A stretch of DNA of 64,000 nt, taken from the NCBI GenBank assembly GCA_030688735.1, contig JAUYJC010000630.1:2262-66261 (forward strand), written 5' to 3'. Source of the DNA: Deltaproteobacteria bacterium. Its GTDB lineage: Bacteria; Desulfobacterota; Binatia; UBA9968. The notes beneath the pieces were generated by a model. It saw only the letters and a list, made by a program, of their open reading frames with translations, searched no databases and had not been told where the DNA came from. Position numbers and translations under genes: made by a program. Positions 132-42,697 of the stretch are shown in pieces; position 1 is the stretch's first letter, and each line of letters starts with the position of its first letter.

Positions 132-1877
132 CTATTCGGTAGTGCCTTCCAACAGGTATTTGGCCACCTTACGGACGAAGTTGCGACCATTTACTGTCTT
201 CAAGGGAGAGCCAGGGTCGAGTACGGCGACATCATTGAGGAAAACATCCGGCCCCTCTTCTTCGAGGAAGCGCATGATGTCGGCGGGAATCATGTTCCTG
301 GCTGATTCGGCAAACTCTGCGGGGGTGGTTTTGCCACCTTGCACTGCCGCTTCCATGAACCGGACCGCCAACTTGACCTCATCCGGCTCGGGGCGTCTTG
401 CCATTTTCTCCTGTGCCTGCTGAATCTCGATGACCTGCTCTCGGGTGAGATCGTGGACGAGCCCGTGCTCGTCGCGGACCTGAATTCGGCCATCGGGGGT
501 TTGGTAGGGCTGCCCCACGGGGGGCAATGCTGCCAACTGGGTCTGGGCCTGCGGCGCCGCCGCCAACTGCGCGGGTGCTGGTGGGCCGCCGATGATGCGC
601 TGGATGGCTTCTGGATTTTCCATGACCGTTTGCGCCAGAGATTCGTACCACTTGGGTCGCTCCTCCTCGTTGCCACCGAAGACGCCGTGGAGTTGTTGGT
701 ACACGCTCGTCATCTCGACGGCTTGATCGGCAACGGATTTGTCTTTTCGGGCTCGAAGCTCACCGACCTCAGCCTCGGTCTTGCCGAGATCGCGGTTGAG
801 CTTGTCGATCTCGGACTTGAGCCCATCAATTCGGGTCTCGTAGGCCAACTTGGTGGTTTCGAGCTGCCCTTGGTGGGAGCGTTGCAGGTTGTCGATCTCC
901 CGCAGGTGTGACTGTTCTAGGCGGTTGATCTCAGCGGCTCGCAGCACTTCCTCTCGCTTGAGGTCTTCGCGATGATTCTCGCGAAGCTGCCGGGTTTCGG
1001 AGTCGTGCTGAGCCCGAAGTGACTCGACACGCCCTGACTCCTGTCCCCACATGGACTTCATCAAGTCGGTGGAGCCATCGGGTTTGCTGCCTTGCTCGGC
1101 GATGTACTTGAGTAGTTGCGTGTCCTTCTCGGTGAGCTTGGTCTGCAACTGAGTCACCTGCGCCACGAGCGGATTCATCATCGTCTGAATCAGCGCGAGG
1201 GTTTCGCCATTGCTGCCGTTGCCATTGCGTCGACCCTCCTGTGCCATCTGTTGCGCGAAGTCAAACGCACGACTGCCAAGCCCGCCATCCTCTTCGCCCT
1301 TGGTCCGGGGACCACCAAGCATGACGCCATCCACAATGGGGTGCCCGGGGATCTTCACTGTGCGACTCTTGAAATAGACCATTCGACCTTGCTCGTCAGG
1401 TCGCATGACCTGAACGGAATACGTTCCGCCACCATTGGTGAGCTTGATATCGTCCTCAGTGAGCATTTCATCGTATTGATCGATGTATCCACCGATCTCA
1501 ACAATGTCCCCGTTTGCATCGCGAACCTTGTCGGGCTTGCGTCGCTCAAGCTTGACCTTGAAGTTGTCGTGAACTCCGAGGGAGTCGAGCCACGACTGCA
1601 AGGTCTGATCGCCACGCTCGATCATCTCCTTTTGACGACGGGTTGTGGTGCGCCTGGGAATGGGTGTGACAGTGGCGATTCCATCATCGTCTTCTTCGAT
1701 CTCTGGCATTTCTTCCTCTTCTTCCTCTTCGGTTTCTTCGACTTCAACCACCTCGATAGGCGAGTCGGTCTTACTCGTCTTCCGCCGACGCTTCTTCTTC
1801 TTTAGTGGCATTTTCTTCTCTAGTTTTTCCAGCTCCGTCGTCGTCATTGTCGGAATCGTCGGCATCTTCGTCCTCAT
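132..1877 (-). CDS. coiled-coil protein with basic/poly-Glu N-terminus (possible scaffold or internal virion protein)
   Basis: 581-aa ORF. KKKKRRRK then a poly-Glu run, followed by a long Q/E/R/L-rich heptad-like middle. Start ambiguous: 1877, 1865 (GAGGA upstream) or 1811. Confidence 0.6.
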   Translation of the reverse strand: MRTKMPTIPTMTTTELEKLEKKMPLKKKKRRRKTSKTDSPIEVVEVEETEEEEEEEMPEIEEDDDGIATVTPIPRRTTTRRQKEMIERGDQTLQSWLDSLGVHDNFKVKLERRKPDKVRDANGDIVEIGGYIDQYDEMLTEDDIKLTNGGGTYSVQVMRPDEQGRMVYFKSRTVKIPGHPIVDGVMLGGPRTKGEEDGGLGSRAFDFAQQMAQEGRRNGNGSNGETLALIQTMMNPLVAQVTQLQTKLTEKDTQLLKYIAEQGSKPDGSTDLMKSMWGQESGRVESLRAQHDSETRQLRENHREDLKREEVLRAAEINRLEQSHLREIDNLQRSHQGQLETTKLAYETRIDGLKSEIDKLNRDLGKTEAEVGELRARKDKSVADQAVEMTSVYQQLHGVFGGNEEERPKWYESLAQTVMENPEAIQRIIGGPPAPAQLAAAPQAQTQLAALPPVGQPYQTPDGRIQVRDEHGLVHDLTREQVIEIQQAQEKMARRPEPDEVKLAVRFMEAAVQGGKTTPAEFAESARNMIPADIMRFLEEEGPDVFLNDVAVLDPGSPLKTVNGRNFVRKVAKYLLEGTTE

Positions 1878-2262
1878 CTTCGAGGGTGATTTCCTCGATA
1901 AGTTGGGCTGCCATCACAGCAGCGCGTTCGTAGCTCTCTTTGGCTTGGGTGAGCTTCTTCGCAAGCAGCTCGTCATCAATCTTGATGTCTTCGACGATCA
2001 AGCAAAGCGCAGCGCCAAGCTCCAAAGCGCCGATGATGGTCTTCGCAGTGTCCTCGTGGATGAGTTCGCCACTATCCTCGATGAGATCGACGAGCATCTT
2101 CTCGTGCTCGTCGGCCTTGTCCGAGACGACTTCAATGAAGCCATCGAAGAGCGAGAGGATCTCATCATTGATGAGGGACCTCATCGTGTTGTCCAGCGGC
2201 ATCTTCGCCACTCGCTTCTTCAACAGCGTCACGTCCGCTCGGATTTGCTGAAACTCTTGCAT
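1771..2262 (-). CDS. acidic hypothetical protein
   Basis: 163-aa ORF with an Asp/Glu-rich C-terminal tail. It overlaps both neighbours, so the true start may be an internal ATG (2202 or 2184). Confidence 0.5.
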   Translation of the reverse strand: MQEFQQIRADVTLLKKRVAKMPLDNTMRSLINDEILSLFDGFIEVVSDKADEHEKMLVDLIEDSGELIHEDTAKTIIGALELGAALCLIVEDIKIDDELLAKKLTQAKESYERAAVMAAQLIEEITLEDEDEDADDSDNDDDGAGKTREENATKEEEASAEDE

Positions 2263-2695
2263 TGTCTATCTCCCACTCGTGTTGTCGCGCTGCAAGCGCG
2301 GCCGTTTCTAGCGGCGTATACGGGTCCCAGCGGTTGCATTCCAGAATTGGAAGATCCCCGCTTAGAGAGGTCTCAGTGCCCGGGTGAGCACAACAGGTCC
2401 GAGTGATCTGAATCGGCGCATTGTGCCCAAGCTCGGCGTAGTCCTTCGGACTCGACGCCGCTTCAAACGGGTTGATGATTTTCCAGAGGTGGCGACACGG
2501 CCCTCGAACGCAGACGCCTGCATCGAAGTCCCCGAGAGGGCGCGTATCGACGGGGAAGGAGCCCGGTGCAATGCCGCCATCGGAGCCGATTGGCAAAGCA
2601 GAAGGTTCGTAACACTCGGCGATGAGGTCGTTGACGTTCTTCGTTTTGCCTTCCGGCGGAATCTTGGTGGTCATCGGCCGACACTGTAATGCCAA
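2165..2695 (-). CDS. Cys-containing hypothetical protein
   Basis: 176-aa ORF. The listed start is TTG; the ATG at 2674 is more likely. First gene leftward of the divergent intergenic region. Confidence 0.5.
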   Translation of the reverse strand: MALQCRPMTTKIPPEGKTKNVNDLIAECYEPSALPIGSDGGIAPGSFPVDTRPLGDFDAGVCVRGPCRHLWKIINPFEAASSPKDYAELGHNAPIQITRTCCAHPGTETSLSGDLPILECNRWDPYTPLETAALAARQHEWEIDNARVSANPSGRDAVEEASGEDAAGQHDEVPHQ

Positions 2696-2770
2696 ACGGC
2701 GGAAAGGCTACGGTGTTCCTGCGATATTTTTATGGTATTTTTTAGGTGTTTTTCTTGTTTATTATTGGGA

Positions 2771-3022
2771 GATTTGCCAAATGTCACTCTGAGGGCTTGA
2801 CCGATTTGCCAAAAGGGTCGCCGAAAGGGTTGATCGATTTGCCAAAAGTGTCGTCTTGGGTGGCCGAAAAATCGGCGACCTCGACCGGGCCGGCGACCTC
2901 GACCGGGCCGGCGACCGAGCCTATAGAGGATCGGCCCCCCGTGACACCTTGGCGCGCACTGACCTAATCCGCTACACCTATAAAATCAGGTACTTAGGCC
3001 AGGATCGTGACACCTTGGCGCG
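2771..3022. repeat. short direct repeats in the divergent intergenic region (candidate operator/promoter region)
   Basis: GATTTGCCAAA x3 (2771, 2803, 2836). 18-bp CGGCGACCTCGACCGGGC in tandem (2873-2920). GTGACACCTTGGCGCG x2 (2941, 3007). Confidence 0.8.
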
Positions 3023-3160
3023 ATCGGCGGTTTTGGGGCCTAATAATTCCGCGGGGTTACACTGGCCTGTGGCCTGCATATCCCTGTGATTTTTGGACCC
3101 GGGCGATTCTGCCCACCTGCAACCCCGCGAAAACACGCGGAAAACACTGAGGAGCACTAG

Positions 3161-4837
3161 ATGGCCGAAATCACATGGATAGGACCACGAGGATCATGGG
3201 CGCGGCTGGTTCGCGAGGTAGACCCGGGGCTCGGGGTAGGCGTCAAGAGCTTTCCGGGCCGCTACCTCACTAGCGGCACGCCGAGCGATCTACCTCCGGG
3301 CGCTGTGGTGCTCCGAGTAGGTGCAGGAGTAGCGCAGCTCGGAGTGGTGCGGGACGGTGCACTACGATTCGAGCCCGCCCGCTATGATTGGCGCCTGGAT
3401 AGCGCCGCGATCGTCACCCGGGCGCGCGCCCTACTTGCGGCCACCACTCCGGCCACCACTCCGGCCGCCGCTAGCGGCGTCGCAGCGTCGCTGACCGAGA
3501 TCGCCGCCGAGTCTCGGACGACGGCAGCGGTCACGGGTCGGCGCTGGATGCGCGGCGCGACGCGGCGCGGCGCGGCGCCGGTAGAGGATACCGGCGGCCG
3601 TGACACGTACCGGCGCCTAGTCCTCGCAGGCGGCGCCGCTGAGGGTAGCGGCGCGCTGACGGGCTGGGCGGGGCTCGGATCGGTACCACGCTCGCTGATC
3701 TCCGAGGCCCTTGAGGCCGCGGGGCTACCGGCCGGATGGGCCCCCGCGGCAAAGAGCGACGTAGCGCACGCTGGTCACGTCTTAGGCACGCTGAATGGCC
3801 ACGGATCGGGGCTGATCTCGCGCCGATGTGGGGCGGCAAAATGGGATCGCGGTGTCTACGAAAAACGACGTGAGTACCGCGCTCGCTGGACCGTCCAGCG
3901 AGCCATATCGACCGCTGAAGTAGGCGATCAGGGCGGCCCTGTGATCCTCACGGCCGAGCTGAGGGACGGTGACAGCACGCTACACTTAGATGGTCCGTCA
4001 GAGATGGTCGCTGAGCTGCGCGAACGCTATCTAGCGAGAATTGCAGCCGAAACCCTGAATGCGGGGGACGTGACTACCTGGCTCGCGCGCACCCTGCGCG
4101 ATCGGTGTGGCGCGGCGCGGTACGCGGTAGGCTACTACCTACCAGCCGGCGGCCGTGAGATCGCCGAGCGACTCGTAGCTGCGATGTCCGTCCGGTGGGG
4201 CGCGGGCTGGGCGAGCCCGCTCCTGCCGGTCGCGTCAGGCCCCGAGCTTGTCGCGGGGCTCGCCAGGGGATTTTTCGACGAGATCTCCAGGGTCGCGGGC
4301 TCGCTGGCGACCGCTCGCGAGGCCGCTAGGGCTGCGAGCCCACCCGCGAGCGAAATCAGTGCCGCGATAGCCGCGCGACTGCTGCGCGACCTCGGCGACG
4401 TGTCCGAGCGAGCGGACGCCTACCGTGTGCTAGTCGGCGCGGATGCGCTCGCTCCAGCGGTCGCCGAGCTAGCCAGGCTACACGCCGAGCTAACTCCCCT
4501 AGCGGACGGGGCCTCGGTCCGATTCGCCCTGCTCGAACTAGACGACTCACCGGCCGAAATTGCCGCATCCGAGCGAGTGTCGCCGGCTATCCGGGCTGCC
4601 GAGGTCGCGAGCGAGGCTAGGCGGGCTGAAGCTCCGGCCGCCACTCCGGCCGCCACTCCGGCCGCCGAGGCTGAGCGGGACACGTACCGCGCGGCACTCG
4701 CCCAGTCGGGGATGACCTCAGAAAAGTTCCGGGCCGCATGTGAAGCGTACCTCAGCGAAGATCGCAGCCCCGCGGCCTGGGTACGCGCTGCACAGATAGT
4801 CACACGTCCCTCGGGGCGAGAAATCGAGCTGGACTAG
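3161..4837 (+). CDS. Ala/Arg-rich hypothetical protein
   Basis: 558-aa ORF with GAGGAG upstream. Strongly GC-rich codons. Internal ATTPATTPAA / PAATPAATPAA repeats near both ends. Confidence 0.7.
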   Translation: MAEITWIGPRGSWARLVREVDPGLGVGVKSFPGRYLTSGTPSDLPPGAVVLRVGAGVAQLGVVRDGALRFEPARYDWRLDSAAIVTRARALLAATTPATTPAAASGVAASLTEIAAESRTTAAVTGRRWMRGATRRGAAPVEDTGGRDTYRRLVLAGGAAEGSGALTGWAGLGSVPRSLISEALEAAGLPAGWAPAAKSDVAHAGHVLGTLNGHGSGLISRRCGAAKWDRGVYEKRREYRARWTVQRAISTAEVGDQGGPVILTAELRDGDSTLHLDGPSEMVAELRERYLARIAAETLNAGDVTTWLARTLRDRCGAARYAVGYYLPAGGREIAERLVAAMSVRWGAGWASPLLPVASGPELVAGLARGFFDEISRVAGSLATAREAARAASPPASEISAAIAARLLRDLGDVSERADAYRVLVGADALAPAVAELARLHAELTPLADGASVRFALLELDDSPAEIAASERVSPAIRAAEVASEARRAEAPAATPAATPAAEAERDTYRAALAQSGMTSEKFRAACEAYLSEDRSPAAWVRAAQIVTRPSGREIELD

Positions 4838-8647: not shown

Positions 8648-8742
8648 GAGGCCGGCCTTCCGGGTTGCCCCGGTGTCAGGGATGAGGATTAGTGCTCCTC
8701 TTCTCCTTGGCATCGGGGCTTTTTTGCACGAAGCTCCCGGGC

Positions 8743-9210
8743 ATGAGTAAAAAAGCCTTGGTTCTTTCAATCGTCTTGATGGGGTTCGCCGCCGACTACG
8801 CCTACGCGAATGACGCCGGTACGGTCGATACGGCCGTGGTCGTCGTCGATGCAGTGCCACCTATCGTGGTCGCAACGACGCCGCCCGCCGACGAGGATAG
8901 TGTCGTCGACAGTGCGAAGGGCGCCATTACGTCGCTCAAGGGTGGCAAAGCCATCCTCGGGCTCGGGTTCATCGCGTTGTTCCTGGGCGCGGTAGGCCGC
9001 AAGCTCGTGGGCTTGAAGTGGAATTTCTGGAAGTCAAAAGCAGGTGGCTACACAATCGCCGTGTTTTCCGGCTTGACCCTGTTTGGCACCGGAACAATTT
9101 CCAACGGTAGCTTCAGCCTCGATGTGCTGCTGAATTCCGTGGTCGTTGTTCTCGTCGCCATGGGTCTGCATGGTCCAGCGAAGTCAGCTAAAGCGGCTGC
9201 GACCAAGTGA
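8743..9210 (+). CDS. multi-pass membrane protein with N-terminal signal-like segment (possible holin)
   Basis: ATG 8743 gives MSKKALVLSIVLMGFAADYAYA followed by about three hydrophobic helices. It lies immediately upstream of the spanin pair. Confidence 0.5.
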   Translation: MSKKALVLSIVLMGFAADYAYANDAGTVDTAVVVVDAVPPIVVATTPPADEDSVVDSAKGAITSLKGGKAILGLGFIALFLGAVGRKLVGLKWNFWKSKAGGYTIAVFSGLTLFGTGTISNGSFSLDVLLNSVVVVLVAMGLHGPAKSAKAAATK

Positions 9211-11409: not shown

Positions 11410-12249
11410 ATGAGCATCCTACAACTCGCAAGCGCGTCGAATGCCATCATCAACGAAGGCCAGAAGTTCTACCGAATCAATCAGCCAGCTCTTGGCAACG
11501 GTGACATCTTCGAGGTGGATCAATCCGTCAAGGCTATCGTCGTTGGTCCTCTGAGTGATTTTGCTGAGTATTCAGTTTACTACTACGATCCCATTACTGA
11601 TTTGGCTGTGAACCTAGCGACAATCAGTAGTGATCAACCATTCATTGGCGATCTATTAGTGCGCCTTGATCAACAGTATCGCGGAGCCCGGGGGCTGTCT
11701 GGCAAAATTATCGTCACAACAAAAGATCTATACATACCGACTGCATTTGCTGGTGCTATTGCGCCGAGCACGAGCGATATCTTCCCCCCGAACATTGATT
11801 TACTGTTCTACACAACCCCTCCGAACACTATTCCTGATAAGCGGCCTTCAAGGGTGATTAGAACGGCGATTTCTGCCGCTGCTGCTGTTGCGGTCCACTC
11901 ATTTCATTTTCCGTCTTATGGGCGACGTATTATCAGCATCTCTCTAGTGGATGCGAGTTCAGCTATCGCAGCATCACTTTCAGTGTCAGGAACCAACTTC
12001 GCGTACCCATCAGGAGATTTTTATTCGGATACGGTTCCTATGATAGCAACGCTTGGTGGGACTACCGCGATGACGCCTGGCGGTATCTCGGGAATGACCT
12101 ACAACGCTGAAACCCCCGCTGCAATTGCGGGGGGTGGGACTCGTGGTTATTGGGACTATATTACCGCCAACATTATATCGGATTTTGACATTAACCCACC
12201 GACTTCAGTACGCGGTGATCTTCAGATTTTCTTCAGTGCTAAGGACTAA
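11410..12249 (+). CDS. hypothetical protein (beta-rich, possibly virion-associated)
   Basis: 279-aa ORF, tightly spaced with its neighbours. Confidence 0.7.
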   Translation: MSILQLASASNAIINEGQKFYRINQPALGNGDIFEVDQSVKAIVVGPLSDFAEYSVYYYDPITDLAVNLATISSDQPFIGDLLVRLDQQYRGARGLSGKIIVTTKDLYIPTAFAGAIAPSTSDIFPPNIDLLFYTTPPNTIPDKRPSRVIRTAISAAAAVAVHSFHFPSYGRRIISISLVDASSAIAASLSVSGTNFAYPSGDFYSDTVPMIATLGGTTAMTPGGISGMTYNAETPAAIAGGGTRGYWDYITANIISDFDINPPTSVRGDLQIFFSAKD

Positions 12250-39903: not shown

Positions 39904-40172
39904 ACATCCCAAACAAACGCGCTAGGTGGCGGTCCGGGTCCGGATCTAAGTCCTGGTCCTGGTCCCGAACCCAGACCCGGTCCGGGTCCCGGTCCGGGTC
40001 CTGGTCCAGGTCCTGGTCCGGGTCCGGATCTAAGTCCTGGTCCTGGTCCCGAACCCAGACCCGGTCCGGGTCCTGGTCCGGGTCCTGGTCCAGGTCCTGG
40101 TCCTGGTCCGGGTCCGGGTCCTGGTCCCGGTCCTGGTCCCGGTCCAGGTCCTGGTCCGGGTCTCAGTCCTAG
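39900..40172 (+). CDS. repeat protein 1: VNIPNKRARWR-(S-G/W/R)n, coding frame uncertain
   Basis: GTGA overlap with the upstream stop. Low-complexity Ser/Gly/Trp/Arg product. Confidence 0.35.
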   Translation: MNIPNKRARWRSGSGSKSWSWSRTQTRSGSRSGSWSRSWSGSGSKSWSWSRTQTRSGSWSGSWSRSWSWSGSGSWSRSWSRSRSWSGSQS

Positions 40173-40198
40173 TTCCAGTCCAAATCCAAGGTGTCGCC

Positions 40199-40411
40199 AT
40201 GAGTACCCCGAACAAACGCATTAGGTGGCGGTCCCGGTCCGGGTCTCAGTCCGGGTCCCGGTCCGGGTCCCGGTCCTGGTCCCGGTCCGGGGCCGGGGGC
40301 GGGGCCGGGTTCTGGTCCGGGTCCTGGTCCGGGTCCTGGTTCTGGTCCGGGTTCTGGTCCGGGTTCGGGTCTCAGTCCGGGCCCCGGTCTTTGAGGGTGT
40401 TGCTGCCATGA
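40199..40411 (+). CDS. repeat protein 2: MSTPNKRIRWR-(S-G/W/R)n, coding frame uncertain
   Basis: ATG start; the stop overlaps the next ATG (ATGA). Confidence 0.35.
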   Translation: MSTPNKRIRWRSRSGSQSGSRSGSRSWSRSGAGGGAGFWSGSWSGSWFWSGFWSGFGSQSGPRSLRVLLP

Positions 40412-40617
40412 GCACTCCCAACAAACGCGCTAAGTGGCGAACCCGGTCCGGGTCCGGGTCCTGGTCCTGGTCCCGGTCCGGGTCTCAGTCCGGGTCCCAG
40501 TCTCGGTCCTGGTCTCGGTCCTGGTCCCAGTCCTGGTCCGGGTCCGGGTTCTGGTCCCGGTCCCGGTCCCGGTCCGGGTACGGGTCCTGGTCTGAATCCA
40601 AGGTGTCGCTGCCGTGA
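40408..40617 (+). CDS. repeat protein 3: MSTPNKRAKWR-(S-G/W/R)n, coding frame uncertain
   Basis: ATGA-coupled start; the stop overlaps the next GTG. Confidence 0.35.
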   Translation: MSTPNKRAKWRTRSGSGSWSWSRSGSQSGSQSRSWSRSWSQSWSGSGFWSRSRSRSGYGSWSESKVSLP

Positions 40618-40820
40618 GTACCCCGAACAAACGCGCTAAGTGGCGGACCCGGTCCGGGTCCGGGTCCTGGTCCTGGTCCTGGTCCGGGTCTCAGTCCGGG
40701 TCCCGGTCCGGGTCCGGGTCCTGGTCCAGGTCCTGGTCCTGGTCCGGGTCCGGGTCCTGGTCCCGGTCCTGGTCCCGATCCTCCGGGTTTTCAGAGGTGT
40801 CGTGGTCATCACAGCACTAG
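40614..40820 (+). CDS. repeat protein 4: MSTPNKRAKWR-(S-G/W/R)n, coding frame uncertain
   Basis: GTGA-coupled start. Ends 22 nt before the TnpB-like gene. Confidence 0.35.
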   Translation: MSTPNKRAKWRTRSGSGSWSWSWSGSQSGSRSGSGSWSRSWSWSGSGSWSRSWSRSSGFSEVSWSSQH

Positions 40821-40842
40821 AAAGATTAGAAAGGAAAGACAA

Positions 40843-41665
40843 ATGAGCAAAATTCTAGTTTACAAATTCGGAGCCCGCTATCCATCCGCAGAGTCTCGCG
40901 CGCTGTTGCTCGCACAAATGCGGATGGGGCATGAGTATTACAACCACCTCGTCGAAATGGAAAACGCTCGACGTAAGGCGGCGCAACGCTCGTGCAGATC
41001 GTATTCGTAGCACCCGCGACGTGATGCGCAACGAGCTGCTTGAGTGGCTCGGCGCCGATGAGAGTGAGTCTTCAAATCTCGTGCGTGATCGGGCGGGACG
41101 ACTCGCCATTTTCCGCGGTTTGCTGCGCGTGGTAGGAATCGATACCGACCAGGCGACAATTGATCGGCTGCAAGAGCACGTCCACCGAGATCGGCATCTG
41201 GCTCAGTACGAGAGCGGCAACCGCCGGCGCGCCGAGTTGCACAGGCGCAATGAGTTCCGCAAATTTGTTCGCGTGCTACGCCGGCGCTATCTCTGCGTCA
41301 TGATCAAGACGGACGCGATCAAGGAGATGAAGGAAAAAGGTGATCTCCCACAACCCGCGCGGAAACAGGGACAGATTGCGGCTCCGGGCGAGATGTTGGC
41401 AGAGCTACGCTCTGTCTTCCTCGACGGCGGCGCAATCATCGTCGTCGAGGGTGAGTACACGTCACGGGATTGCGTGAAGTTGGAGTGCGGGCATCGCAAC
41501 GAGGGCTACGCGGGTCCTGTGCTGATTTGCGAGCAGTGTGGTGACACGAGGGATCGGGATGAGGTATCTGTGGAGAATATGATGCGGCTGCTGGCGAGGG
41601 GGGGAGTACAAAATCAAGACCGCTCGCAAACGGGTGGCCAGGTTCGCGAAACGACACAAGAGTAG
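40843..41665 (+). CDS. hypercompact TnpB/Cas12-like (RuvC + zinc-ribbon) protein split over two frames (40843..41010 and 40931..41665)
   Basis: N-terminus MSKILVYKFGARYPSAESRALLLAQMRMGHEYYNHLVE. VVGIDTD (RuvC-I-like). C-terminus IIVVEGEYTSRDCVKLECGH...CEQCGDTRDRDEVSVENM (TNB finger + RuvC-III). A frame change is needed near 40975-41010. The CRISPR array follows immediately. Confidence 0.65.
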
Positions 41666-41673
41666 CGAGAGCA

Positions 41674-42064
41674 GTGACAATGCCAGCTCGATGGCTTAGA
41701 GATCGAGACATGCCGTCGAGCTTCGCGCCATCCACGCTGAGGTCGTGACAATGCCAGCTCGATGGCTTAGAGATCGAGACAGCTGCAAGGTGTCGACCGC
41801 TTTCCCGCACCCCCTGTGACAATGCCAGCTCGATGGTTTAGAGATCGAGACCACTGGAACAATCGCCGCCTGAGCGCGAGGGAGCTTGTGACAATACCAG
41901 CTTGATGGTTTAGAGATCGAGACTCGTCGGTACCGTTCACCGCCTCTACCACGACAGGTGACAATGCCAGCTCGATGGCTTCGTGATCGAGACCGAGAAG
42001 TCTAGGGATCTCGGGGTGAAGCAAGGGGTAGTAATGCCAGCTCGATGGCTTCGTGCACTTCCGT
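41674..42064 (+). CRISPR. CRISPR array: five 36-bp repeats plus a degenerate sixth (a seventh remnant at 42071-42106)
   Basis: GTGACAATGCCAGCTCGATGGCTTAGAGATCGAGAC at 41674, 41745, 41816, 41888, 41958. Unique spacers of 35, 35, 36, 34 and 35 bp. Repeats decay away from the TnpB-like gene. Confidence 0.85.
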
Positions 42065-42086
42065 CAAAAGTAGTAATGTCAGCTTG

Positions 42087-42413
42087 ATGCTGGATTTAGT
42101 CGTGAACAAGACACCACCACTGTTCTGTCCTAAGTGCAAAACTAAAACCCGGCTCATCTCGACCGGCATCTGCTATCGCTGCAACTGGTGGGCGAAGGTC
42201 ATGGGCAAAAAGCCGCCAAAGCGAACCCGCCCGGCGCCCTTGCCACTGAAGCCGCGCAAGCGTAAGAACCCCCCGGGCAAGCCGGGTCGACCGCGCGGCA
42301 AGGTCCGCATCCCGGGGTTGATTCAGTGCGCGGGATGGGCGTGGTCGATAGGCCGGCGATGCTCACGGATGGCAGAGCTTGGTGGTGATTACTGTTGGGA
42401 GCACAAGAGATGA
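42087..42413 (+). CDS. zinc-ribbon protein with Pro/Lys/Arg-rich linker
   Basis: CPKCK...CYRC, then KKPPKRTRPAPLPLKPRKRKNPPGKPGRPRGK. Start uncertain (42045, 42087 or GTG 42102); all three lie inside degenerate repeats. Confidence 0.55.
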   Translation: MLDLVVNKTPPLFCPKCKTKTRLISTGICYRCNWWAKVMGKKPPKRTRPAPLPLKPRKRKNPPGKPGRPRGKVRIPGLIQCAGWAWSIGRRCSRMAELGGDYCWEHKR

Positions 42414-42697
42414 GCGTCACTGAAATCGTTCGAAGTTGGCTCACAGTGAATGGCTACACCGGATTCCACCAAGCAGAGTGTGGATGTTTGGTGATCTGGT
42501 CGGCGCAGCAGCAGGGTGAGCCTGGATACCAGGTGGACTGCACCTGCAAGGAGAAAAATATGGCTGGCAAGATAGAAGACCTGAAGGCACAGATAGAGGA
42601 CCTGGAAGAGCAACTGAAGGTAGTGACGGAGATCCGGCATCACGGCTGCGAGTGTAGTGATGATGACGTGTGCGCTGTGCGCAGGACGTGGATATGA
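42410..42697 (+). CDS. hypothetical protein with short coiled coil
   Basis: ATGA-overlapped ATG at 42410; Cys-containing; KIEDLKAQIEDLEEQLK. Confidence 0.55.
   Translation: MSVTEIVRSWLTVNGYTGFHQAECGCLVIWSAQQQGEPGYQVDCTCKEKNMAGKIEDLKAQIEDLEEQLKVVTEIRHHGCECSDDDVCAVRRTWI

Follow-up and report, generated by a model that had tools for sequence, protein, structure and literature searches.

Introduction

The described systems closest to the locus analyzed here are the Cas12m (type V-M) systems, whose crRNAs (MmCas12m2, 8HHL; GoCas12m, 8PM4; and PmCas12m) derive from 36-nt repeats, as in the present case, and share a single order of elements, namely the 5′ strand of stem I, a bulged A, a G that pairs with the A at position -2, the 5′ strand of stem II, the 3′ strand of stem I, a loop, the 3′ strand of stem II and a terminal AC. 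According to the Cas12m2 structure paper, A(-24) is flipped, G(-23) pairs with A(-2), and C(-22..-17) pair with G(-8..-3) in a helix that is stacked on the second stem; the PmCas12m preprint pairs positions -28..-26 with -17..-15 and -23..-20 with -6..-3. Stem I and stem II have both been described in Cas12m repeats, with a triplex-pseudoknot in the structure, and the handle has been noted to be reminiscent of the triplex-pseudoknot core of TnpB (Bigelyte et al., 2024; PMC11013384). The same study gives the Go crRNA as GUGUCAACGCCAG-CGCGGA-GGCGUCAAA-UCCGCG-AC (Table S5) and catalogs entries of the Cas12m clade c3 that come from IMG/VR, e.g., no. 112, with 512 aa (Table S1). MsCas12m and PmCas12m are known to process their own pre-crRNA, cutting it close to the 5′ terminus of the repeat (Bigelyte et al., 2024, PMC11013384; PmCas12m preprint).

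Three other kinds of systems invite comparison. The compact type V systems Cas-phi (Cas12j) and Cas-lambda resemble the present system in being phage-borne, in pairing one compact effector with a short array and, as would be predicted here too, in using crRNA as the only RNA component, and the hairpin in their repeats likewise ends in AC before the guide. However, they come from huge phages, whereas the contig studied here is about 68 kb long and its predicted handle is the Cas12m pseudoknot; in the fold search described below, Cas-lambda ranks 34th or lower (E = 2e-5 and weaker) and the family in question is nearest to Cas12m. The omega-RNA (reRNA) of TnpB is a 150-nt RNA from a transposon end, in contrast to the handle considered here, which is about 36 nt long, repeat-derived and located in a spacer-bearing array. 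Finally, virus-borne orphan mini-arrays and RNA anti-CRISPRs have reportedly been described, which share with the present locus the occurrence of CRISPR repeats in phages without a working cognate effector.

Here we analyze a CRISPR locus in a 64-kb stretch of DNA, henceforth the window, for which a first-pass annotation made from the sequence alone had described a repeat hairpin next to an effector gene. The evidence presented below makes it highly probable that this is a phage-borne V-M locus in which the first repeats of the array are intact and the cognate gene is a pseudogene, that is, most likely a decaying remnant.

The array and its repeats

The window is phage-like, with genes for a DNA polymerase, a helicase, an exonuclease and an M15 peptidase, and is only distantly related to known phages, the best polymerase match showing 27% identity. 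The CRISPR array (41674-41993, plus strand) consists of five 36-nt repeats (41674-41709, 41745-41780, 41816-41851, 41888-41923 and 41958-41993), all of which are recovered as plus-strand hits of the covariance model at 31-50 bits. They enclose four spacers of 35, 35, 36 and 34 nt (41710-41744, 41781-41815, 41852-41887 and 41924-41957, respectively). A fifth spacer-like segment of 34 nt (41994-42027) leads from repeat 5 to the first of two degenerate trailer repeats (42028-42058 and 42070-42112, plus strand), both of which are without the 3′ arm of stem II. When scored with the covariance model of the family, repeats 1-7 reach 49.8, 49.8, 42.5, 31.3, 49.2, 10.7 and 6.3 bits, in this order. The decay away from the gene that the first-pass annotation had read from the array is thus real, but it is not monotonic, repeat 5 scoring like repeat 1. 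Covariance-model scans detected no further repeat copies elsewhere in the 64-kb window and, with both window strands covered, no anti-repeat-like copy on the minus strand, and neither a search of the window against Rfam at gathering thresholds nor a tRNA scan returned any hits.

As a separate observation, a 122-aa ORF (42045-42413) starts inside degenerate repeat 6; its product is Cys-rich, zinc-ribbon-like and very basic, and has weak Pfam matches only.

The consensus of the window repeats is GTGACAATGCCAG-CTCGAT-GGCTTAGAG-ATCGAG-AC (36 nt). On the plus strand, the minimum free energy (MFE) fold of every repeat variant contains a 6-bp stem and a 9-nt loop, followed by AC, so that the hairpin ends 2 nt before the spacer, as had been claimed. 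In repeat 1, the arms of this helix, here denoted stem II, are CTCGAT (41687-41692) and ATCGAG (41702-41707), i.e., repeat positions 14-19 and 29-34, and the same offsets apply to repeats 2-5. A second helix, stem I, would join GCC (41682-41684; positions 9-11) to GGC (41693-41695; positions 20-22), again as numbered in repeat 1.

The departures from the consensus are C22T in repeat 3; C16T, C22T and G9A in repeat 4; and A25C and A27T in repeat 5, the latter two recreating the loop TTCGTG, which is the consensus in other arrays. The C16T change, by which CTCGAT becomes CTTGAT, is present as first reported and leaves a U-G wobble pair, whereas G9A in the same repeat had gone unnoticed in the first-pass annotation; more generally, every change at a paired position of the window repeats keeps the pairing. 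The first-pass annotation had considered the changes in repeats 3 and 5 to be confined to the loop, which is correct for repeat 5 (positions 25 and 27) but not for repeat 3: because GGC at 20-22 is predicted to pair in stem I, C22T, in repeats 3 and 4 alike, is not a loop-only change.

On its own, the structural evidence from within the window, which amounts to three structure-preserving transitions, is weak, and by energy alone the hairpin is no better than shuffled sequences (z between -0.4 and -1.0; 33-68 of 200 shuffles fold equally well or better). The main support for the stem comes from other loci.

Homologous arrays and covariation of stem II

The contig that encodes P0002, a relative of the window effector (see below), carries an array directly 3′ of the gene (locus L001), with the repeat CTAACAATGCCAG-GACGGT-GGCTTATGA-ACTGTC-AC. 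The flanks of this repeat are the same as in the window repeat, and the stem arms differ yet are complementary to each other. Further arrays were sought with a pattern of two copies of CAATGCCAG-N6-GG at array-like spacing, in which the stem II columns were left free. The search yielded one array in IMG/VR (L085), approximately 33 array-bearing loci on metagenome contigs and one array in a Gemmatimonadota MAG. In IMG/VR, single-copy repeat patterns produced chance matches only, and the two-copy pattern recovered mostly unrelated coding repeats but also L085. The MAG array was the one true array in the scan of genome contigs, and hence gave no indication of the host.

From these arrays, 25 distinct consensus repeats were aligned for covariation analysis (alignment A3). 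All six pairs of stem II (14-19/29-34) show compensatory double changes across the 25 repeats, 149 of the 150 cells are paired, and none of 500 shuffles equals the observed pairing or covariation score. When, as a control, the 3′ partner is slid by 1-3 columns, pairing falls to 23-46%; moreover, RNAalifold independently predicts the stem II helix. Joint changes are also seen among degenerate repeats: in L163, both arms change from CCCAGA/TCTGGG to CCCATA/TATGGG and to CCCAAA/TTTGGG, and in L183 the two stem arms likewise change together. Non-compensatory stem changes in homologous arrays had been proposed in advance as the observation that would count against the hairpin; the hairpin passed this test decisively, and the covariation upholds the suggestion that the stem belongs to the 5′ handle of a type V crRNA and is conserved at the RNA level.

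Two of the arrays are orphans. L085, on an IMG/VR viral contig (array at 8713-8965 in array orientation), has no detectable effector relative within 8.7 kb upstream, and L208 (array at 12068-12249) has none within 12 kb upstream. No synteny of L085, L208 or L001 with the window was found beyond the CRISPR locus.

Some loci show unusual repeat layouts. In L242, the effector gene (1871-3325) is preceded by five repeat copies at irregular intervals (367, 901, 1022, 1205 and 1260) and followed by a normal array (regions 367-1295 and 1871-3589). In addition, L164, L202, L204 and L216 (period 64) and L194 (period 68) contain periodic arrays with units that begin with CAATGCCAG and have other 3′ parts and shorter periods, e.g., ACTACAATGCCAGGTTAGTGGCAGCGACACACTCAC; these may be related or unrelated repeat families.

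The effector family and its remnant in the window

A word-indexed search of 5.8 billion proteins returned P0002 (479 aa, 37% identity) as the sole relative of the window effector. An exhaustive HMMER search found roughly 13 close relatives, with lengths of 470-530 aa, and, at E < 1e-10, more than 1,200 further proteins, mostly of about 550-620 aa among the matches listed. P0002 matches a Cas12m chain from PDB with E = 3e-13, and the top four Foldseek matches of its structural model are Cas12m2 (8HHL, 8HHM and 8HIO) and GoCas12m (8PM4), with E-values from 1e-19 to 3e-16, followed by TnpB as the next-best structural match (1.5e-12) and then by Cas12f (about 1e-10). Furthermore, the 512-aa IMG/VR entry of clade c3 in Table S1 of Bigelyte et al. 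(2024; PMC11013384) is a clear member of the P0002 family. Clade c3 and P0002 to P0015 represent the same family, of viral-metagenome origin, and share the motifs VYKYGA, GLYWGTYLVIEQ, FRSWRQGD, VAIDVGWRK, ADRIRSxRD, HLWQYExGCR and AVIKDSCHKKMKE; the clade c3 entries are catalogued only, whereas the copy in the window has an internal deletion and frameshifts. Judged by sequence, modeled fold and published catalog, the intact gene family is Cas12m-related.

The family nevertheless differs from the characterized Cas12m proteins in several respects. Its effectors are shorter (470-530 aa as against 577-607 aa), the 3′ end of the gene overlaps repeat 1, and RuvC-II has a Lys rather than Glu/Asp. 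The Lys occupies the position of the RuvC-II Glu (VxKD) in 13 of the 15 aligned family members, which would fit a binding-only mode of action. In the window, moreover, the gene is a pseudogene.

The evidence for this last point comes from the region immediately upstream of the array, where tblastn and blastp identify three plus-strand pieces of the effector in three frames. Piece 1 (40843-40986, frame 1) corresponds to the N-terminal 43-46 residues of the full-length relatives (MSKILVYKFGAR...ENARRKAAQ; matches to P0002, P0011 and P0014 within residues 1-46); residues 1-39 of P0002 align to a separate upstream ORF, 40843-41010. Piece 2 (40985-41602, frame 2) corresponds to residues ~268-457 of the relatives (266-457 in P0002) and lies inside ORF 40931-41665 (244 aa), which encodes a Cas12f1-like TNB zinc-ribbon domain that scores just above the Pfam threshold; this piece contains the RuvC-II region (IKT; canonical E-D), the RuvC-III DRD motif and the CxxC...CxxC zinc ribbon of TNB. 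Piece 3 (41601-41699, frame 3) encodes GEYKIKTARKRVARFAKRHKSSESSDNASSMA followed by a stop, the conserved C-terminal tail of the family. Residues 457-476 of P0002 align to this frame at 41601-41660, and the piece reaches 26 nt into repeat 1, where it ends in a TAG stop codon at 41697-41699. Correspondingly, the homologues end in ...NASPAA, with NAS encoded by AAT GCC AGC of their own first repeat. The change of frame between pieces 2 and 3 in the tblastn alignment is located at a run of seven G (41598-41604); a G7 homopolymer is a classic slippage site.

Residues ~47-274 of the relatives (~228 residues) have no counterpart anywhere in the window, the junction being located near 40981-40987. 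To judge from the AlphaFold model of P0002 (mean pLDDT 83), what has been lost comprises the REC helices, the WED barrel and the RuvC-I strand that bears the Asp. The three-piece arrangement seen with P0002 is also obtained with P0011 and P0014, the full-length proteins nearest to the window copy (44% identity). Two Logan contigs assembled from different SRA runs are identical to the window over 40748-41703, and an origin of the frameshifts in faulty assembly was rejected on this ground; given this identity of two independent assemblies, the lesions are real. Thus, what had been annotated as an effector gene is a remnant with an internal deletion of ~228 codons and two frameshifts, the window has no intact adjacent effector of the Cas12m family, and, on sequence grounds, the gene is a pseudogene. 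Without the WED barrel and RuvC-I, the window protein should not hold the handle. The truncated 244-aa protein may nonetheless have a function, as its reading frame remains open, with both zinc ribbon and DRD motif retained.

Just upstream of the remnant, the region 39905-40846 contains four or five tandem units of ~205-290 nt, in each of which a conserved head, CC(C/A)AACAAACGCGCTA(A/G)GTGGCGG (peptide STPNKRAKWR), precedes a long (GGTCCG)n tract; TRF counts ~138 hexamer copies. Small plus-strand ORFs in these units (e.g., 40199-40411 and 40614-40820) encode MSTPNKRxxWRxRSGSGSWSWS..., with frames that differ between units. Analogous small tandem units, with the head ATGTCTAAACTTAAA... followed by short repeats around CCAGGTA, are present at 3500-3860 of L001, the other phage-like contig that carries this effector family. 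The two regions are linked by tblastx, which may be a low-complexity coincidence.

Given the ~228-codon deletion and the two frameshifts in the effector gene, the locus is probably not autonomous. [quoted passage not shown] In keeping with such use, these three repeats score as high as any family consensus, all changes at paired positions preserve pairing, and the viral array L085 as well as L208 lack an effector within 8-12 kb upstream. However, the three structure-preserving changes in the window are all transitions and are compatible with chance (roughly 0.01 to 0.25), two trailer repeats are destroyed, and the 64-kb window contains no second copy of the effector. Nor were spacer targets found: spacers 1-3 have no exact 20-22-nt match in IMG/VR, the whole array has no meaningful match among phage or plasmid records, and the spacers have no match elsewhere in the window. 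Furthermore, in contrast to virus-borne orphan mini-arrays and RNA anti-CRISPRs, the window keeps an obvious effector remnant, so that simple decay explains the locus, and no host system with matching repeats was identified for this array. We therefore consider continued use of the array unlikely and favor its interpretation as part of a decaying V-M locus.

A predicted Cas12m-type pseudoknot in the repeats

Taken as originally presented, the hairpin would be a stand-alone stem-loop. Comparison with Cas12m leads to a different view. The published pair coordinates of MmCas12m2 and PmCas12m map one-to-one onto the window repeat, and the PmCas12m pairs are exactly 9-11/20-22 and 14-17/31-34 of that repeat. 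Because these coordinates coincide, the identification of the hairpin with stem II, i.e., the pseudoknot (PK) helix of the Cas12m H-type pseudoknot, is strongly supported; the first three bases of the supposed loop, GGC, would pair with GCC at 9-11. A12 is predicted to be bulged and G13 to pair non-canonically with A35, as in the cryo-EM descriptions; 80 of 84 repeats have both G13 and A35. The alignment of the window repeat with the GoCas12m repeat GUGUCAACGCCAGCGCGGAGGCGUCAAAUCCGCGAC is free of gaps, and the pattern CAA(U/C)GCC(N)AG-stem-GGC-loop-stem-AC is common to the window, Ms, Tf and Un repeats (Bigelyte et al., 2024, Table S5). The window repeats are thus homologous to Cas12m repeats and appear to possess the complete handle, with stem I and stem II in a pseudoknot, the G:A pair and the 3′ AC. 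We assign them to the type V-M (Cas12m-type) CRISPR repeats.

Stem I is invariant in the 25 consensus repeats, for which the search pattern fixed positions 9-11 and 20-21 and left C22 free. Variation at the 9:22 pair is nevertheless found within arrays. In the window, this pair is G:C in repeats 1, 2 and 5, G:U in repeat 3 and A:U in repeat 4, where G9A compensates C22T to give A9:U22. The G:U and A:U variants arise independently in L203, and G:U appears twice in L183. Across more distant repeats, the sequence of stem I changes and yet remains paired, as in GCCC/GGGC (Mm, Ap), GCCU/AGGU (Tf) and ACGCC/GGCGU (Go), and the stem stays paired, with a differing helix sequence, in the Un and Ms repeats too. 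L298, which was found via its protein rather than its repeat, has the paired stem I AAGGA/TCCTT.

These observations bear on the possibility that the handle is a simple stem-loop, as in Cas12a or Cas-phi, with a plain loop and no pseudoknot. The MFE fold and RNAalifold indeed give the hairpin only, but both programs are incapable of predicting pseudoknots. The invariance of GCC 9-11/GGC 20-22 in the consensus repeats, its covariation in degenerate repeats and in distant family members, and the cryo-EM structures of three Cas12m complexes, which show both helices at the same offsets, render a plain stem-loop very improbable. Moreover, no Cas12a or Cas12j chain is among the significant fold matches (E <= 0.001). 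Since Cas12m ranks first in the fold search and the GGC of the "loop" is predicted to be paired in stem I, the system falls outside the single-hairpin class of Cas12a and Cas12j, and the Cas12m pseudoknot is the structure that we adopt below.

Strand and transcription of the array

When read on the plus strand, A-C cells are absent from the 25 consensus repeats and 7 cells are G-U; among the 84 unique repeat variants, there are 32 G-U cells versus 7 A-C cells, the latter mostly in terminal degenerate copies. The G-U cells fit the plus strand only because they would be C-A mismatches on the other strand. Where a locus has at least ~0.7 kb of sequence upstream of the array, as is the case for 20 loci, an effector relative directly precedes the array in the same orientation, except for the orphans L085 and L208, and the degenerate repeats of homologous arrays are usually found at the end of the array that is far from the gene. 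In view of the wobbles, the upstream effector relatives on the same strand and the far-end degenerate repeats, there is good support for reading the array on the plus strand and for placing its leader on the side of the gene, in agreement with the original proposal that the array is read in the sense of the adjacent gene.

The family effector ORF runs into the first repeat, which would therefore be essentially without an intergenic leader. A scan of 40700-42500 revealed no promoters and just two weak terminator-like sites, both of them on the minus strand. Array and gene probably share one transcript, or else the array is transcribed from a promoter inside the gene. A 24-nt block, GCCAGGTTCGCGAAACGACACAAG, which is identical in the window and L001, was considered as a leader or promoter element and rejected: it encodes the family C-terminal peptide ARFAKRHK, and L196 and L200 differ from it at synonymous sites.

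Finally, the notion that the region is not a CRISPR array but a coding tandem repeat on either strand, or a minus-strand element, for which one might invoke the mechanically called minus-strand ORFs that overlap the array (41436-41822 and 41767-42024), can safely be dismissed, given that the spacers are mutually unrelated and the repeats conserved, that homologous arrays share the repeat, carry other spacers and follow a Cas12m-like gene, and that the wobble pairs cannot be reconciled with a minus-strand reading.

Discussion

Under the interpretation that we favor, a V-M locus in decay, the plus-strand transcript would have each repeat folded as a Cas12m crRNA 5′ handle. Pairing of GCC 9-11 with GGC 20-22 and of positions 14-19 with 29-34, together with the bulged A12 and the G13:A35 pair, would produce an H-type pseudoknot with coaxially stacked stems, and C36 would directly precede the guide. 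By analogy with published work on Cas12m, it can be predicted that, in the intact relatives, the WED and RuvC domains of the 470-530-aa protein clamp the pseudoknot and that the pre-crRNA is trimmed a few nucleotides into the repeat, near its 5′ end. By the same analogy, ~17-20 nt of the spacer would then direct PAM-dependent binding to DNA and thereby a block of transcription or replication. Such silencing would most likely occur without DNA cutting because the RuvC-II Glu is replaced by Lys in most family members. The window array, for its part, probably decays from the trailer end.

The architecture of the handle has already been published and the effector family has already been catalogued as Cas12m clade c3 (Bigelyte et al., 2024; PMC11013384). 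The locus is therefore an ordinary decaying, phage-borne member of a known system and does not involve a new mechanism. Were the array used in trans or as a decoy after all, the implication would be that a phage can keep a transcribed Cas12m-type array after effector loss, and either borrow a Cas12m-like protein of the host or of a co-resident element to silence competitors or titrate that protein; the effector-less arrays L085 and L208 would then be further examples.

Within the favored framework of decay, the present analysis, with approximately 25 distinct repeats, provides a covariation-backed case for conservation of the Cas12m pseudoknot handle in a compact branch of the family whose members come mostly from phages and metagenomes. 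The natural repeat variants also show which positions of the handle tolerate change, information that could be of help in guide-RNA engineering for miniature Cas12m tools. For the phage itself, the locus offers a snapshot of a V-M system decaying inside a phage genome.
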